Origin: a virus
Taxonomy: Duplodnaviria > Caudoviricetes
DNA: 61,551 bases
Reading direction: 5' to 3' (one strand)
IMG/VR virus record: IMGVR_UViG_3300030107_003029
Coordinates: 1-61,551 of that record
Of the stretch, positions 2,007-49,232 are shown piece after piece. Under the pieces are notes generated by a model, which was not told the origin of the DNA, made no database searches, and was given only the letters and a program-made list of their open reading frames with translations. The position numbers and the translations under genes are program-made. The number at the start of each line of letters is the position of its first letter. Within the stretch, counting starts at the first letter, position 1.

Positions 2007-2046
2007 ACTAGACAGAGGTTATTAAAACTTATATAAAAGGAGCATT

Positions 2047-2472
2047 ATGGCAAACAGATTATACAATAAACAAGTATCACCTAAAGGGTATAAAAAAGGT
2101 GGACGAGTAAACACTGGAAGAATGAATCTTCTAGAAGAAGTTGGAAGAATTGATGCTGAAAGACCTAATCGAAATAGAAGAGCAGAAAAAAGAAGAGTCA
2201 TAAGCGAATTAAAAAAAGGGTATGAGAAAGGTGGAAAAGTAAAAAAATATAAAAAATTTAAAGAACCAGGTGGTGGCGGATGGAATAAACCTGGCCCACA
2301 TAAAGTACATCAAAATAGAAGAGACACAGAAAAATTTTTTGGACACGGAAAATTAACTGATGCTATTGTTAAAATAGCAGATAAGCATGATAAACCAGTT
2401 CATAAAAAATGGAAAAAAAATCTCCAAAAGCAAATGGATAGCGTAAATAAAAAAAATAGGAAAAAGAGTTAA
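2047..2472 (+). CDS. Basic protein with YKKGG/YEKGG motifs
   Basis: AGGAG RBS; Lys/Arg-rich. Confidence 0.65.
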   Translation: MANRLYNKQVSPKGYKKGGRVNTGRMNLLEEVGRIDAERPNRNRRAEKRRVISELKKGYEKGGKVKKYKKFKEPGGGGWNKPGPHKVHQNRRDTEKFFGHGKLTDAIVKIADKHDKPVHKKWKKNLQKQMDSVNKKNRKKS

Positions 2473-2474
2473 TT

Positions 2475-3098
2475 ATGCCAGCACTAGGAAAATCATCTAA
2501 AAAAGCTCCAGGTAAAATAAGATCAACAATTGGTAAATTTAGAAAAAAATGGATGCCAACTTTCGATGAACAGTTTTCAAAAGCAAAAAAAGAAGGTAAG
2601 AAAACTTTTAGATCTACAAGAGATGATAAGAAAAAAGGTAAATTAGAATACCACACAAGAACTAAAGCTGAAGAAGATAAAGCACAAAAAAGACACACTA
2701 ACCGTGAAAGAGCAATGACAGGTGACAAGAGTAAACAGTTATCTGAAAGAGGTGCTAAATTTAAACTAGCTAAAAAAATGGGTAAAGATACTTTTACTCA
2801 TAAAGGTAAAAAATATACCACTCTACTTAAAGGTGAGAAAAAGAAAAAACCTTTAATTTCTGGAAAAGGTTTTTGGGGTAAAAAAATAAATATATCTAAA
2901 CCAGAATTATCTGGAAAAACTTCTAAAAAAATTAAGAGAGCTGTGGGAGCAAAAGGCGGTGGAAGAATCGCTGGTGCTGCACGTAAAGCCCAAGAGCATG
3001 GATGGTATTCACCAGACATGGGAATGAAAGGAAGACGTATGTACGCTAAAGGTGGATTAATTAAAGGAAAACCGAAGCTGGCCGTCAAAGGTTGGTAA
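2475..3098 (+). CDS. Basic protein ending YAKGGLIKGKPKLAVKGW
   Basis: Lys-rich; C-terminus shared with 59146..59358. Confidence 0.65.
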   Translation: MPALGKSSKKAPGKIRSTIGKFRKKWMPTFDEQFSKAKKEGKKTFRSTRDDKKKGKLEYHTRTKAEEDKAQKRHTNRERAMTGDKSKQLSERGAKFKLAKKMGKDTFTHKGKKYTTLLKGEKKKKPLISGKGFWGKKINISKPELSGKTSKKIKRAVGAKGGGRIAGAARKAQEHGWYSPDMGMKGRRMYAKGGLIKGKPKLAVKGW

Positions 3099-3099
3099 C

Positions 3100-3318
3100 T
3101 TGATCCGAGCGAAATTATTAGACGCTCTTTTAGCTAGATACAAAGCAACCGTAAAAGAAGCATCAACTACAATAGAAATCTATTTAAACCATCCTGTAGC
3201 AATTGGGGAACATCCTCAGCATTTACAAGAGATAGATAAACTGTTACAAGTAATAGCAGATGCAGAAGAAAAAATATCAACAATAGAAAGGCATTATGGA
3301 AGACCTAGTATTAATTAG
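3100..3318 (+). CDS. Hypothetical phage protein (IGEHPQ motif)
   Basis: Helical ORF in operon upstream of GroES. Confidence 0.6.
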   Translation: MIRAKLLDALLARYKATVKEASTTIEIYLNHPVAIGEHPQHLQEIDKLLQVIADAEEKISTIERHYGRPSIN

Positions 3319-3538
3319 TAAATTAAGGAAGCTTATCAACGATAGGCATCAAGATGTTATTACAACAATGGTATCTGGAGCTGTTGACAATATGGAAAAA
3401 TACAACTATATGTTAGGACAGATACGAACGTATCAATATTTAAGTCAGGAAATATCCAGCCTGCTAGAAAAAAAGGAGCATTATGAAAACACAGGAACAG
3501 TCGTCGACATCAACCCAAAAGATAATAACACCAAATAA
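3296..3538 (+). CDS. Hypothetical phage protein
   Basis: Overlapping operon arrangement before GroES. Confidence 0.65.
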   Translation: MEDLVLISKLRKLINDRHQDVITTMVSGAVDNMEKYNYMLGQIRTYQYLSQEISSLLEKKEHYENTGTVVDINPKDNNTK

Positions 3539-3914
3539 AGATTTAGTTGGTGTAAAAAAATCAAAAGACAAACAAGAATCAGCCAAATTACCAACTCCTA
3601 CAGGTTGGAGATTATTAGTTCTACCTTTTAAACAAAAAGAAAAAACAAAAGGTGGAATTATTATAACGGACGATGCCATTGATAGATCACAAGTCGCATC
3701 AACTTGTGGTGTAGTTTTAAAAATGGGTCCGGATTGCTACAGGGACAAAGAAAGATACCCAGACGGTCCTTGGTGCAAGGAGAAAGATTGGGTGATCTTT
3801 GCAAGATATGCAGGATCCAGAATTAAAATTGATGGGGGTGAAGTTAGACTTCTAAACGATGATGAAGTTCTAGCGACCGTGGAAAACCCTGAAAGTATAT
3901 TCCACGAATTTTAA
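3483..3914 (+). CDS. groES: Co-chaperonin GroES/Cpn10 homologue
   Basis: PTGWRLLVLP...KTKGGII...GVVLKMGPD...FARYAG...LLNDDEVLA. Confidence 0.92.
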   Translation: MKTQEQSSTSTQKIITPNKDLVGVKKSKDKQESAKLPTPTGWRLLVLPFKQKEKTKGGIIITDDAIDRSQVASTCGVVLKMGPDCYRDKERYPDGPWCKEKDWVIFARYAGSRIKIDGGEVRLLNDDEVLATVENPESIFHEF

Positions 3915-45626: not shown

Positions 45627-45703
45627 ATAAAATTTTTTTCTTCATATTTGCATTCTTAGGATTGATGACCTTGTTATCAATTTATATGGTAGTTACTTTA
45701 TGA
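45623..45703 (+). CDS. 26-aa single-TM peptide (GTG start)
   Basis: GTGA/ATGA coupling at both ends. Confidence 0.5.
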   Translation: MNKIFFFIFAFLGLMTLLSIYMVVTL

Positions 45704-46044
45704 GTGATAGGTATCTTGCAGGACTCTTTGATGGCGAAGGGTGTGTAACCTATTCCAATAATATGGTAAAAAGAAAAGGAAAGAAAAAAGCTTACCCTAC
45801 CTGGAACATAAGATTAGAAATAGCTATGACTTGTAAAGAAACTATTCAATATGCTTTAGATACATTTGGTTGTGGACATATGAATTTTAGACCAAGGGCT
45901 TCTCATCAAACAATGGATCAATGGCGATGGCGTTGTTCTCATAGAGATGCTTTACAATGTGCAAAAAGGATGGTACCCTTCAGCATAACTAAAAAAGATA
46001 AATTAGAAAGTATAGTTAAACATTATGAAGTTAAAGATTCTTGA
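45700..46044 (+). CDS. Single-motif LAGLIDADG-like endonuclease/DNA-binding protein, free-standing
   Basis: YLAGLFDGEG...IAMT...FG.G...WRW...K. Confidence 0.8.
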   Translation: MSDRYLAGLFDGEGCVTYSNNMVKRKGKKKAYPTWNIRLEIAMTCKETIQYALDTFGCGHMNFRPRASHQTMDQWRWRCSHRDALQCAKRMVPFSITKKDKLESIVKHYEVKDS

Positions 46045-47392
46045 TCTATTCTCTGGACTGGGTGGTTTTTCACTTGGTTTAGAACGTACAGGAAGCTTTG
46101 AAACAGTAGCATTTTGCGACAACGATAAATATAGCAAATTAGTGCTGCAAAAACATTGGAAAGGAGTTAAGATATATAACGATGTCAAAGAAATCACAAA
46201 AGAAAAATTCATTACAGACGGAATTCAATTTCCCGATATCATCACAGGAGGGTTCCCGTGCCAACCGTTCTCGGTCGCAGGCAAACAAGCAGGAACCGAT
46301 GACGACAGACACCTCTGGCCTGTTATGTTTCGAATCATCCAAGAGTTTACCCCGAGGTGGGTTATTGGAGAAAATGTCAAAGGTCTTACTAACATCCAAG
46401 ACGGCGTGGTCTTCGAGACTGTGTGTACTGACTTGGAAGGAGAAGGTTACGAAGTCAGGACGTTCAATATTCCAGCTGCAAGCGTCGGCGCCCCGCATCG
46501 ACGCGAAAGACTCTGGATTGTTGCCCACCGAAAAGAATCTATGGTCAACCCCGACGACATTCGACTCGAACAACATAACACAGCCGAGGAAGAAACATCC
46601 TGGTGGAGGACAAGTACCACCTTTGAACCAACAAGTGATGTGGTTGACACCATCAGCAACGGTGAGGGGCGAGAGATCCCCCGAAGCTATGAAGAGGAGA
46701 GAGGAATACAGGAAGAGCATAGGCAGGACGACAGTTCCGCCAGGCTCACTAGCAGAACAAGTTCAATACGGCAAACCAACAACGGACATGAAGATATGGA
46801 GGACTCCCGACGCACATTGCGACAGGGGACCGAGCTCGGAGAAAAGAATGAAGATGAAGTTAGAGAAGGGTATGCCAATCAGCATCAACGATCAGGTAGC
46901 ACATCCGAATTTGATGTGGCCAACGCCAAGGGCGAACGAACCAGGGAGAACGACGAAGGGTTACGGTCGAGGACTAGCGGAGTTAGTGGAAGGCAAGGAA
47001 CAAGTGGAACCGAAGAAGATGTGGCCAACACCTACGCAAGACTCAGCAACGGAACGTACGAAGAAGTACAGTCAAGGGGGCAAACCATTAACACTAGCAG
47101 TGAAGGAAGCACAGATGTGGCCAACACCGAGAGCAGCGATCGGCATGACAATGAAGCTGTCGCAGGGAATGGCGAATCTTCGACACAAGAAGTATTTGGA
47201 GACGGAAGTAGCGTATCAGGAGAAGGCTCCTGGTGGCACACTGAACCCGACGTGGGTCGAGTGGCTCATGGGGTACCCGGCAGGGTATACAGACTTAAAG
47301 GATTGGGAAATTCTATCGTCCCGAAAATCGCGGAAGAAATCGGCAAAGCCATCATCGAAGCGGAAGGATTAAATGACAGCACCGAATCTTAG
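46025..47392 (+). CDS. dcm: DNA cytosine-5 methyltransferase, alpha-type chain (motifs I-VIII and X, no IX)
   Basis: LDLFSGLGG, GGFPCQPFS, GENV, PHRRERLW, RLKGLGNSIVP. Confidence 0.9.
   Translation: MKLKILDLFSGLGGFSLGLERTGSFETVAFCDNDKYSKLVLQKHWKGVKIYNDVKEITKEKFITDGIQFPDIITGGFPCQPFSVAGKQAGTDDDRHLWPVMFRIIQEFTPRWVIGENVKGLTNIQDGVVFETVCTDLEGEGYEVRTFNIPAASVGAPHRRERLWIVAHRKESMVNPDDIRLEQHNTAEEETSWWRTSTTFEPTSDVVDTISNGEGREIPRSYEEERGIQEEHRQDDSSARLTSRTSSIRQTNNGHEDMEDSRRTLRQGTELGEKNEDEVREGYANQHQRSGSTSEFDVANAKGERTRENDEGLRSRTSGVSGRQGTSGTEEDVANTYARLSNGTYEEVQSRGQTINTSSEGSTDVANTESSDRHDNEAVAGNGESSTQEVFGDGSSVSGEGSWWHTEPDVGRVAHGVPGRVYRLKGLGNSIVPKIAEEIGKAIIEAEGLNDSTES
46182..47372 (+). CDS. Nested +1-frame chain: six WxTP modules plus motif IX (beta-type chain); true start uncertain
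   Basis: 396 open codons inside the MTase; LNPTWVEWLMGYPAGYT resembles motif IX. Confidence 0.75.
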   Translation: MSKKSQKKNSLQTEFNFPISSQEGSRANRSRSQANKQEPMTTDTSGLLCFESSKSLPRGGLLEKMSKVLLTSKTAWSSRLCVLTWKEKVTKSGRSIFQLQASAPRIDAKDSGLLPTEKNLWSTPTTFDSNNITQPRKKHPGGGQVPPLNQQVMWLTPSATVRGERSPEAMKRREEYRKSIGRTTVPPGSLAEQVQYGKPTTDMKIWRTPDAHCDRGPSSEKRMKMKLEKGMPISINDQVAHPNLMWPTPRANEPGRTTKGYGRGLAELVEGKEQVEPKKMWPTPTQDSATERTKKYSQGGKPLTLAVKEAQMWPTPRAAIGMTMKLSQGMANLRHKKYLETEVAYQEKAPGGTLNPTWVEWLMGYPAGYTDLKDWEILSSRKSRKKSAKPSSKRKD

Positions 47393-48203
47393 AATCTTAT
47401 CACTTGGCGCAGGAGTACAAAGCTCAACTCTAGCATTAAAAATAAAACATGGAGAAATTCCTATGGTGGATGCAGCAATCTTCGCCGATGTGAAAGGAGA
47501 GCCTAAAGCCGTTTACACCTGGTTAGAGTGGTTAAAGAAACAGCTAAATTATCCTGTATATACAGTGACTTACAGAGATTTAAGGCAAGATATCCTTGAT
47601 GCTTCAGTTGGAAAATATAAAGCTTTTACCGCACCGTTCTATACTAAAAATTCAGAGACCGGGAAAAAGGGATTACTTCGTCGCCAGTGCACGGCAGATT
47701 ATAAAATAAAACCCGTCGTTAAAAAAGTTAGAGAAATGTTAGGATTAAAATGGGGAGAGAAAAGAAAGAAAGGTACCCGTGTTGAAATGATTATGGGTAT
47801 ATCTATCGATGAAGTTTTTAGAATGAAGACCAATCAAATAAAATATATTACAAATGTTTATCCATTGATTGATGAAAAGTTATCAAGGGAAGATTGTAAA
47901 AAGTGGATGAAAGAAAATGGATATCCAACACCACCTAGATCGGCTTGTACTTTTTGTCCTTATCATTCAACGGAGGAATGGTTAAATGTTAAAAAGAATC
48001 CAGAGGAATGGGCTCAAGTTGTAGCCATGGATAAAGCAATTAGGAACACGGAAAAATTTAAAGATGGTGGAAAGGCTACTAAAGTAAATGATGAATTATA
48101 TTTACATAGAAGTTGTGTACCCATTGATGAAGTAGACTTTGGTAAAGAAGATCCACAAATGGATTTATTCAATTCGGAATGCGAGGGCATGTGCGGGAAT
48201 TAG
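47373..48203 (+). CDS. PAPS-reductase-family (PP-loop, Fe-S Cys) protein, probable DNA-modification enzyme
   Basis: LSLGAGVQSS, RQCT..YKI, GIS.DE, YPL, RSACTFCPY, ECEGMC. Confidence 0.8.
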   Translation: MTAPNLRILSLGAGVQSSTLALKIKHGEIPMVDAAIFADVKGEPKAVYTWLEWLKKQLNYPVYTVTYRDLRQDILDASVGKYKAFTAPFYTKNSETGKKGLLRRQCTADYKIKPVVKKVREMLGLKWGEKRKKGTRVEMIMGISIDEVFRMKTNQIKYITNVYPLIDEKLSREDCKKWMKENGYPTPPRSACTFCPYHSTEEWLNVKKNPEEWAQVVAMDKAIRNTEKFKDGGKATKVNDELYLHRSCVPIDEVDFGKEDPQMDLFNSECEGMCGN

Positions 48204-48385: not shown

Positions 48386-48555
48386 AAGAAGACTACCAAA
48401 CATTACTTGAAATGTGGAGAGAAGAGAAAAGTAAAAGACAGAAAGCTGAAGAAGAAATAGAAAAATTAAAAGCAGAACTTGCACGGGCTAAAGAAGATCA
48501 TCAATATGATAACCTGGTGCATCAAAAAGAATTGGAGAGGATGTTAAAGAAATGA
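48382..48555 (+). CDS. 57-aa coiled-coil protein (missed by ORF track)
   Basis: AGGAGG RBS; ATGA coupling. Confidence 0.7.
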   Translation: MKEDYQTLLEMWREEKSKRQKAEEEIEKLKAELARAKEDHQYDNLVHQKELERMLKK

Positions 48556-49232
48556 AATGGAATAAAAAATTTGAGTATCCTGAAACCGTTAGGGGAATGG
48601 TTGAAGGTTTAAGACACTACGATATTAATAACGAGAAATTACCGAGTGTTACAACGATTTTGAATAAGACTCAGACAGCCGAGAAAGCTGAAGGGTTAGC
48701 CAATTGGCGAGCTCGAGTAGGCGAGGCAGAAGCACAAAGGATCATGGACCAGGCAGCCCAACGAGGTACTGCGATGCATACCATCTTGGAACATCACATA
48801 TTGGGAAAGAATAGATTAGACTTGACAGATGTCGGTCAACAAGCCCATAAAATGGCTGATGTAGTAATTGAGAAGGGTTTAAGCCACTTAGATGAAATAT
48901 GGGGCAGTGAAGTTGCCCTTTATTACCCAGAATTGTACGCTGGTGCGACAGATTTAGTAGGGGTTTATAAAAACGCCGAAAGCATAATAGATTTTAAGCA
49001 AACAAACAAGCCCAAAAGACGAGAATGGATAGAAGATTATATGATTCAGCTTGGTGCATACGCTATGGCACACAATTATGTATATCAAACCAAGATACAA
49101 CAGGGGGTTGTGCTAATGTGTAGCAAGGATGGGTACTTCCAGGAGTTCATTGTATCCGAAAAGGAGTTCCAAAAATACCAGCATGAATGGCTTAAAAGGG
49201 TTGATTTATATTACAAAAACGCTCAAAAATAG
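48552..49232 (+). CDS. PD-(D/E)XK exonuclease (Cas4/MGME1-like)
   Basis: PSVTTIL, RGT.MH, YAG.TD, IIDFKQ, QL.AY. Confidence 0.88.
   Translation: MKWNKKFEYPETVRGMVEGLRHYDINNEKLPSVTTILNKTQTAEKAEGLANWRARVGEAEAQRIMDQAAQRGTAMHTILEHHILGKNRLDLTDVGQQAHKMADVVIEKGLSHLDEIWGSEVALYYPELYAGATDLVGVYKNAESIIDFKQTNKPKRREWIEDYMIQLGAYAMAHNYVYQTKIQQGVVLMCSKDGYFQEFIVSEKEFQKYQHEWLKRVDLYYKNAQK

Follow-up and report, generated by a model that had tools for sequence, protein, structure and literature searches.

The 61,551-bp virus record IMGVR_UViG_3300030107_003029 from IMG/VR (Caudoviricetes; analyzed at its full length, with a completeness estimate of 98%, and referred to here as the window) carries two long open reading frames (ORFs), A and B, on the plus strand between positions 46025 and 47392. 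ORF B is located fully within ORF A, in its +1 frame, and the two genes overlap over 1,191 nucleotides (46182 to 47372). The six tandem W-x-T-P modules encoded in frame B probably form the recognition array of beta, one of the two subunits of a phage C5-cytosine methyltransferase; the beta gene is nested within that of the alpha subunit, similarly to M.EcoHK31I. Dual coding of this region, selection on frame B, the start signals of gene B, the shuffling of the cassettes among relatives, and a predicted interface between the two subunits are all shown computationally. That each cassette is an autonomous target-recognizing unit that docks in turn, making the enzyme multispecific and protecting the phage DNA from several restriction systems, is a proposal held here with slightly less than even confidence. 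Somewhat more tentative is the view of beta as a plug-in multispecific subunit, whose anti-restriction repertoire is edited by anchor-mediated exchange of cassettes within a dual-coding region of more than 1 kb that keeps alpha open.

The alpha subunit and its predicted disordered tether

The product of gene A (alpha) is recognized as a C5-cytosine DNA methyltransferase by its family match and by motifs I, IV (PCQ), VI (ENV), and VIII. Its residues 3 to 270 match positions 1 to 260 of the 324-position PF00145 profile (E = 2.2e-51; in another search, the match ends at position 253 of 324), the match to TIGR00675 has an E value of 3.7e-43, and residues 3 to 172 align to residues 12 to 175 of M.HhaI (E = 1.2e-21). 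The AlphaFold2 (AF2) model, which has the large domain of a C5-methyltransferase and a C-terminal helix, matches M.HaeIII (1dct; E = 1.7e-13), and the predicted local distance difference test (pLDDT) values of the catalytic residues 1 to 170 are mostly 85 to 96. Neither motif IX nor a folded small domain with a target recognition domain (TRD) was found in alpha, as the Pfam match stops early and no PDB alignment extends beyond residue 175.

Downstream of the catalytic domain, residues 173 to 424 have pLDDT values below 50, and the linker, 15% of which is hydrophobic, is rich in Glu, Ser, Thr, Arg, and Gly. Across the array of the window, frame A contains no stop codons, versus 7.5 expected. 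At the C terminus, the LGNSIVP sequence and the helix that follows it are kept in frame A, and alpha carries motifs I to VIII and X. Residues 430 to 450 have pLDDT values of about 85, residues 348 to 446 match phrog_32758 (E = 1.4e-21), and E407, P408, R412, V413, R420, R423, L424, G428, N429, and P433 are invariant in an alignment of 45 alpha sequences. The so-called variable region of alpha is a predicted disordered tether, open but free of amino acid constraint, and sequence recognition would therefore have to come from beta.

Conservation of the two-frame layout

Among the IMG/VR candidates, 583 of 599 stretches were confirmed to carry the same array in the same relative frame, which shows that the pattern did not arise by chance. 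Three pieces (motifs I to VIII of frame A, the array of frame B, and the C terminus of frame A) were searched for separately in the best 80 of these, in the window locus, and in one GenBank phage. Relative to the catalytic domain, the array occupies the +1 frame in all 72 loci with both matches, at array identities down to about 35%; a sequencing error or a pseudogene was rejected on the strength of this constancy. The C terminus of alpha is in frame A in 51 of the 52 loci with a C-terminal match, the exception being L020 (see below). The same layout is found in the Escherichia coli phages CarlMeissner (Vequintavirus) and Delraymugoa (Krischvirus), in phage C75C1, and in Caudoviricetes sp. ctgrD200, whose GenBank records annotate only the coding sequence (CDS) of frame A. 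In Paenibacillus phage Leyra, both nested CDSs are annotated.

Beta matches phrog_1008, labeled "DNA methyltransferase" (E = 2.7e-23), and has more than 3,350 relatives in the databases, many of them full-length "hypothetical proteins." In a library of 1.84 billion proteins, its profile matches 35,811 cluster representatives at E ≤ 0.001 and 19,696 at 1e-10. The family spans marine, enterobacterial, and Firmicute phages: in hhalign comparisons, the beta profile scores 98.8% against the nested ORF of E. coli phage CarlMeissner and 99.8% (E = 2e-30) against Leyra gp62. In an alignment of 45 beta sequences, G46, L70, W85, L99, and G112 of the N-terminal region are invariant. The basic tail is not conserved, and many loci end B 12 nucleotides past motif IX.

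Gene B has start signals of its own. A Shine-Dalgarno (SD)-like core is found within 20 nucleotides of the beta ATG in 41 of 49 loci (with a 7-nucleotide spacing in 19 of them), against backgrounds of 19% for sequence windows in general, 226 of 780 for the remaining ATGs of the +1 frame, and 15 of 49 for the start of alpha itself. The beta ATG falls at alpha residues 45 to 66, just past a frame-B stop, and the positions of the SD core and the ATG differ between two clades. A conserved start created by the Asn codon of motif VI (ENV) was considered and rejected, as that codon shows no strong bias (35 AAT, 19 AAC) and the start is located further 5'.

Several loci depart from the nested arrangement and can be grouped as natural "unpacked" variants. 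L077 (2080 to 3354) has three ORFs, namely a truncated alpha (alpha') with motifs I to VIII, beta, and a separate 78-codon open frame with motif X that starts at an internal ATG; in L020 (1 to 1393), beta is fused to motif X; L087 (1303 to 2398) belongs to the same group. In L020 and in gp79/gp78 of mycobacteriophage Phontbonne, alpha' is followed (or overlapped) by a beta that also carries motif X, an arrangement like that of M.AquI. In L016 (478 to 2208), L042 (about 2015 to 3823), P0060, and P0096, B extends beyond the stop of A, with additional W-x-T-P modules past the motif-IX-like segment and a helix-turn-helix-like insert of ∼140 amino acids (module type 21/29). Weak Pfam matches to MerR_1, HTH_28, and Homeodomain, each in a single member of the beta alignment, may be due to this insert.

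Because both frames are open, a long chimeric ORF results from any indel, whether real or introduced by sequencing, and from any other sequencing error. Public protein predictions P0014, P0022, P0027, P0036, P0089, P0097, P0099, P0110, P0114, and P0117 hop between frames A and B (P0114 several times), and such entries carry PF00145 and pollute homology searches. Ten of the database proteins that combine PF00145 with beta similarity were considered as possible single-chain forms and are read as indel chimeras, given their scattered switch points and the lack of motif X in most of them.

Selection on the two reading frames

Frame A is open across the array in 68 of the 72 loci. In 58 nonidentical loci, it has 28 stops in 11,533 array codons; synonymous shuffling of frame B predicts 413, and the third frame contains 948. 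Twenty-four of these stops come from L077, where alpha ends after motif VIII and 20.9 stops are expected, which makes this locus a natural control; the remaining 4 are in L042, beyond the end of A. Diversity at codon positions 1, 2, and 3 of frame B is 0.25, 0.16, and 0.47 for module type 1, 0.13, 0.06, and 0.38 for type 3, and 0.13, 0.07, and 0.37 for type 4, the most variable module site being codon position 1 of frame A. Within the array, frame B is thus the one under selection, and the sole constraint on frame A is that it remain open.

In the upstream part of the overlap, over motifs IV to VIII, frame A keeps its coding pattern. The third-position diversity of alpha declines from 0.54 at residues 1 to 38, where there is no overlap, to 0.39 at residues 131 to 168, with a flat amino acid diversity, and some of its synonymous sites (e.g., those of A151, L137, and G127) are nearly invariant. 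The absence of stops in the N-terminal region of beta (0 versus 97.5 expected) is a partly circular observation, the region having been defined from the open start of B; more weight is therefore placed on the synonymous diversity and the start signals.

The cassette array and its rearrangements

The original prediction, made from the sequence alone, described six W-x-T-P modules of 32 to 52 amino acids in an alternative frame. The frame-B translation (46182 to 47372) reproduces this description exactly: the Trp codons are at 46542 (LWSTP), 46641 (MWLTP), 46797 (IWRTP), 46917, 47022, and 47118 (MWPTP), corresponding to residues 121, 154, 206, 246, 281, and 313; the Trp-to-Trp distances are 33, 52, 40, 35, and 32 residues, with 41 residues in the last module up to the motif-IX-like LNPTWVEWLMGYP; all six closing pentapeptides (from LNQQV to LETEV; see Table 1) are present; and the 12-nucleotide anchor GATGTGGCCAAC occurs three times, at 46913, 47018, and 47114. 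The frame is +1 relative to the methyltransferase ORF (46025 to 47392). The array had also been assigned to the variable region between motifs VIII and IX, which is correct for the equivalent linear position but not for a single polypeptide: motif VIII is in frame A, and the modules and motif IX are in frame B, in a separate protein.

The same prediction called the array recombinable and proposed a comparison of module number and order across phage homologs; both vary. In 74 beta ORFs (some of them cut by contig ends), 1 to 7 modules (mode 4) precede the motif-IX-like segment, and three loci have as many as 5 additional modules after it. Grouped at ≥55% identity, the 305 modules represent 59 types, which form 63 distinct architectures; the window has the order 9-2-1-7-3-4, and relatives have, for example, 2-23-1-3-4, 6-1-3-4, 26-1-22-15-4, and 7-2-1-8-3. 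Thirteen of the 260 co-occurring type pairs are found in both orders. When the window is compared with 73 loci, blocks of DNA similarity end within 15 nucleotides of a Trp codon in 130 of 177 cases (23% expected), and module 4 (46914 to 47032) moves as a unit, being absent from L004 and L005 and found at other positions in L012 and L013. No architecture contains the same type twice (0 of 63), compared with a mean of 19.7 and a minimum of 11 in 2,000 shuffles; at the looser threshold of 45%, there are 15 repeats versus 27.8 expected. As related loci are not independent, these contrasts are indicative only. The absence of repeated types is the one indirect hint that each module may add one protected sequence, as the original prediction proposed. 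The middles of the modules are variable and basic. In the beta ORFs of the E. coli phages, one module together with the motif-IX-like end is enough.

Predicted complex of the two subunits

The complex was predicted from purpose-built alignments of 45 alpha and 45 beta sequences. The alpha-beta pair has ipSAE interface scores of 0.88, 0.89, and 0.88, and the best of three controls has 0.00; of 80 solved complexes, 58 attain the mark used for this score, as do 2 of 110 mismatched pairs. At least 95% of the contacts are common to the runs, and the pLDDT of the partner is 72, that of the others being 82. The predicted interface comprises residues 143 to 170 and 400 to 447 of alpha and residues 56 to 101, 308 to 326 (the head of module 6), and 339 to 378 (the motif-IX-like segment) of beta. 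The model supports, rather than establishes, binding of alpha to beta through parts that include the N-terminal part of beta.

The tightest predicted pairs, alpha 146 to 150 with beta 96 to 99, are encoded by the overlapping stretches 46460 to 46474 and 46467 to 46478, and the nucleotides encoding alpha 407 to 430 and beta 350 to 372 overlap as well. The predicted contacting segments TFNIP (alpha) and IFQL (beta) at 46460 to 46478, and EPDVGRVAHGVP (alpha) and LNPTWVEWLMGYP (beta) at 47229 to 47314, are thus written in the same nucleotides in two frames. In L028, frame A over the beta motif-IX-like segment resembles the alpha motif, and the real alpha motif is located 72 nucleotides downstream. 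This resemblance hints that the C-terminal motif of alpha and the motif-IX-like segment of beta could be derived one from the other by duplication and a change of frame.

Proposed mechanism and its weak points

In the proposed mechanism, alpha would provide the large domain for S-adenosylmethionine binding and catalysis (motifs I to VIII and the motif X helix), with a tether whose freedom from stops would allow translation to reach motif X. Beta would be made from its own SD sequence and ATG, would dock on alpha by its N-terminal helix-hairpin and its motif-IX-like end, and would carry from 1 to 9 W-x-T-P cassettes, with six in the window. Relatives would gain, lose, and reorder the cassettes through recombination at the W-x-T-P anchor. 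Since the W-x-T-P head of module 6 touches alpha in the model and the middles of the modules are variable and basic, it is proposed that any cassette could dock by its W-x-T-P head and present its own recognition loop; the result would be a multispecific orphan methyltransferase with an anti-restriction function, functionally like M.SPRI and M.Phi3TI.

A number of observations weigh against this interpretation, all the support for which is comparative or predicted. No member of the beta alignment (0 of 45) matches PF00145 at E ≤ 10, and there is no match to a solved structure; searches of Pfam, NCBIfam, and PDB with beta, its profile, and its motif-IX segment returned nothing relevant, the best PDB rows being chance matches to the interleukin-15 receptor and antibody chains. 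Compared with the multispecific M.Phi3TI, the beta profile has an hhalign probability of 0.24% (E = 0.25), and its best stretch falls by chance on the SPTLTT segment of that enzyme. The invariant LNPTWVEWLMGYP of beta resembles KLSPLECWRLQAF of M.Phi3TI by eye, a resemblance that receives no support from hidden Markov models, PDB, or hhalign, and the labels "motif IX" and "TRD" for beta rest on pattern, position, and analogy. The AF2 model of beta alone has a mean pLDDT of 52, and the lack of Foldseek matches at E ≤ 0.001 is accordingly uninformative. In the predicted complex, module 6 is alone among the modules in touching alpha; the prediction was obtained with alignments built for the purpose and may owe something to solved monomeric C5-methyltransferases already known to the predictor. 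The SD-to-ATG distance in the clade of the window is long (12 to 15 nucleotides), and the nonredundancy of module types could partly reflect shared descent. As for M.EcoHK31I, the accessible part of the report has the authors placing the TRD in alpha, whereas the conserved modules of the window are in beta; that part mentions no tandem cassette array, and the likeness to the window is one of layout.

Alternative explanations

The strongest competitor, in our judgment unlikely, is that the modules are structural repeats of a single DNA-binding or clamping domain. The specificity of the heterodimer would then be single or relaxed and would depend for the most part on the module adjoining motif IX, and the extra modules would serve affinity or processivity or be mere passengers. 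This explanation accommodates the common W-x-T-P ... L..QV plan of all modules, the contact of module 6 alone with alpha, the single module of the E. coli phages, and the lack of significant homology to the proven TRDs of M.Phi3TI. However, every module type tested is under purifying selection, at least 10 types occupy the position next to motif IX, and no type is repeated within an array, whereas affinity repeats usually grow by duplication.

Far less probable is a single polypeptide made by two programmed frameshifts, +1 after motif VIII (near CGA AAA GAA, 46525 to 46533) and −1 after motif IX (near TTA AAG G, 47289 to 47295), which would restore the canonical order of motifs I to VIII, TRD, IX, and X. 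The motif order across the frames is indeed canonical, and both junctions of the window have short runs of A at which a join reads naturally. However, inspection of 17 of the 82 loci revealed no conserved slippery site or heptamer (L013 has AGA GAA GAA), and frame A is kept open over the array, where such a product would not need it. In many loci, the nucleotides that encode alpha RERIWIVA at the first junction also encode beta SGLWxTP, and the same is true of alpha EPDVGRVAHGVP.RV.RLK and beta LNPTWVEWLMGYP at the second, and one chain therefore cannot hold both members of either pair. In the L028 class and in L020, the EPDVGRVAHGVP and LNPTWVEWLMGYP motifs occur in succession, so each is real in its own right. 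The SD core and ATG of beta are about 120 codons upstream of the array, and that stretch is constrained; L077 has the three parts as separate ORFs; and the database proteins that join the frames are singletons with scattered switch points.

Frame B as a relic or artefact (of indels or of a decayed ancestral frame), with the 455-amino-acid protein of frame A as the only product, is highly improbable: frame A alone is annotated by gene callers and in four GenBank records and B has no Pfam match, but the layout persists at identities as low as about 35%, in 72 of 72 loci, codon-position diversity in the array indicates selection on B and not on A, the profile has tens of thousands of matches, and both subunits are needed in the experimentally studied M.EcoHK31I, according to the accessible part of its description. 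Equally improbable is a beta that regulates or inhibits alpha (e.g., by timing methylation during infection), for although the complex prediction speaks to binding rather than function and beta has no detectable methyltransferase homology, the unconstrained and predicted disordered variable region of alpha leaves no other candidate for recognition, and in M.EcoHK31I, as far as the accessible text goes, beta is needed for activity.

Gene neighborhood and coordinates

The gene directly 5' of alpha (45700 to 46044), which overlaps the start of alpha by 20 nucleotides, resembles homing endonucleases (LAGLIDADG_1, E = 2e-4, just under the cutoff; phrog_5046, "HNH endonuclease," E = 3.7e-19). A "putative homing endonuclease" gene is also located immediately 5' of the methyltransferase gene in E. 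coli phage CarlMeissner, and several matches in Streptococcus and Mycobacterium phages have an endonuclease adjoining the methylase. On the 3' side, the gene at 47373 to 48203 is similar to phosphoadenosine phosphosulfate (PAPS) reductase genes (phrog_424, E = 2.8e-43; no Pfam match at E ≤ 0.01); its ATG directly follows the beta stop, 20 nucleotides within alpha, and its translation may be coupled to that of beta rather than alpha. Further 3' of the methylase cluster is a gene for a PD-(D/E)XK/Cas4-like exonuclease (48552 to 49232; phrog_298, E = 3e-53), with a weaker match to a CRISPR/Cas-associated phrog. Coordinates of the features of the two genes are listed in Table 1.

Table 1. Coordinates and basis of the features of the nested methyltransferase locus in the window
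Feature	Position	Strand	Basis
Gene A, frame A, encoding alpha (455 aa), the large-domain subunit of a C5-cytosine DNA methyltransferase	46025..47392	+	ORF, PF00145, M.HhaI alignment, AF2 model
Alpha N-terminal catalytic domain, motifs I-VIII (FSGLGG, PCQPFS, ENV, HRRERLWIVA)	46025..46537	+	pLDDT, invariant alignment columns
Linker of alpha (residues ∼172-400), where frame A reads through the beta array	46538..47224	+	Composition, pLDDT, stop count, codon-position diversity
Alpha C-terminal conserved segment (WWHTEPDVGRVAHGVPGRVYRLKGLGNSIVP..., motif X helix)	47225..47389	+	Conservation, pLDDT, predicted interface
AAGGAG, Shine-Dalgarno-like core, 15 nt 5' of the beta ATG	46161..46166	+	SD survey
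Gene B (beta, 396 aa), +1 frame, nested in gene A	46182..47372	+	ORF, phrog_1008, database relatives, hhalign
N-terminal region of beta (residues 1-120), sharing nucleotides with alpha motifs IV-VIII; predicted to dock on alpha (helix 61-71, hairpin 82-102)	46182..46541	+	Predicted interface, invariant residues, alpha synonymous diversity
Module 1, type 9, WSTPTTFD...LNQQV	46542..46640	+	Frame-B translation, module typing
Module 2, type 2, WLTPSAT...LAEQV; nearest module type to the single module of the E. coli phages	46641..46796	+	Translation, typing, hhalign
Module 3, type 1, WRTPDAHC...INDQV; commonest type (53/305 modules); pLDDT 72-90 at residues 220-250	46797..46916	+	Translation, typing, AF2
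Module 4, type 7, WPTPRANEPG...LAELV	46917..47021	+	Typing, DNA similarity blocks
Module 5, type 3, WPTPTQDSAT...LTLAV	47022..47117	+	Translation, typing
Module 6, type 4, WPTPRAAIGM...LETEV; sole module contacting alpha in the predicted complex (interface 308-326)	47118..47240	+	Translation, typing, complex prediction
Beta motif-IX-like segment LNPTWVEWLMGYPAGYTD; same nucleotides as alpha EPDVGRVAHGVPGRV	47241..47294	+	Invariant L354-Y365, interface 339-378; motif IX label by pattern and analogy to M.EcoHK31I beta
Basic tail of beta with its stop codon, which directly adjoins the ATG of the following gene (47373)	47295..47372	+	ORF
Anchor GATGTGGCCAAC, copy 1, recombination breakpoint	46913..46924	+	Sequence search, similarity-block ends
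Anchor GATGTGGCCAAC, copy 2	47018..47029	+	Sequence search, similarity-block ends
Anchor GATGTGGCCAAC, copy 3	47114..47125	+	Sequence search, similarity-block ends

Implications

In the databases, beta is a "hypothetical protein" that belongs to no Pfam family, and adopting +1-frame searches for beta as an annotation rule would put thousands of entries right. If the plug-in reading is true, the matches to the beta profile could represent a widespread and largely unannotated class of phage methyltransferases, in which each exchange of cassettes must also keep the frame of alpha open. Recognition by a detachable cassette subunit would make specificity both readable from, and engineerable through, the cassette content, and shuffled cassettes would constitute a compact and fast-evolving counterdefense against restriction. 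An overlap in which one frame is under amino acid selection and the other only avoids stops, together with the rearranged loci L077 and L020, also provides a clean model for how overprinted genes arise, persist, and are resolved.

Comparison with known systems

In the multispecific enzymes of Bacillus phages, each TRD has been proven to confer one specificity. The accessible part of the literature describes M.SPRI, M.Phi3TI, and M.H2I as orphan enzymes with several short tandem TRDs in the variable region (PMC8936443). The modules of the window are in the equivalent linear position, and the tandem array is matched in form only. The Bacillus phage enzymes are single polypeptides encoded in one frame (a 444-amino-acid ORF for M.Phi3TI), whereas the modules of the window are in frame B and the catalytic motifs are in frame A. 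Phage phi3T (104194 to 106519; L090/L091) has two adjacent PF00145 genes, a 326-codon ORF and the gene for the 444-amino-acid enzyme, whose Pfam match is split (profile positions 2 to 86 and 82 to 323) by an insertion after motif IV.

M.AquI consists of two polypeptides, alpha with motifs I to VIII together with a portion of the variable region and beta with the rest of that region and motifs IX and X, as far as the available portion of the source describes it (PMC3404938). The split within the variable region is a shared feature, and the layout is that of L020 and of Phontbonne gp79/gp78; in the window, however, motif X stays in alpha, and beta is nested in alpha instead of following it.

In Paenibacillus phage Leyra, gp61 and gp62 are both named DNA-cytosine methyltransferase, and gp62 (234 amino acids) is nested in the +1 frame of gp61. 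Both genes are tabulated in the genome report, the accessible part of which does not discuss the nesting (PMC6070908). Three modules are present in gp62, versus six in the window.

The nested architecture of M.EcoHK31I was reportedly first published in 1995. This E. coli enzyme, which recognizes YGGCCR, is a natural alpha/beta C5-methyltransferase whose beta subunit is encoded entirely in an alternate frame of alpha (PMC2836561, PMC3404938). In the accessible part of the work on this enzyme, activity is lost when the beta starts are silently removed, the association of beta with alpha becomes progressively weaker as beta is deleted from its N terminus, and the enzyme is said to have already served as a split platform for targeted methylation (PMC2836561). 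The beta subunit of the window is likewise nested in the +1 frame, and its residues 56 to 101 are part of the predicted interface. Relatives of the E. coli phage beta ORF yielded no named link to M.EcoHK31I, as none of the 34 matches is named. The original prediction had presented the array as the best candidate for an undescribed system; this does not hold for the nested beta in an alternate frame, which is the published architecture of M.EcoHK31I (PMC2836561, in its accessible part) and is already annotated as two nested CDSs in the GenBank record of Leyra. In literature searches of incomplete coverage (the supplements of PMC2836561 and PMC6070908 may hold relevant details of sequence or annotation), no description was found of a nested beta as a general feature of phage methyltransferases or of a cassette array in beta, the work on M.EcoHK31I and M.AquI being all that emerged. 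The hidden frame is thus a known architecture, and the cassette array is its new part.

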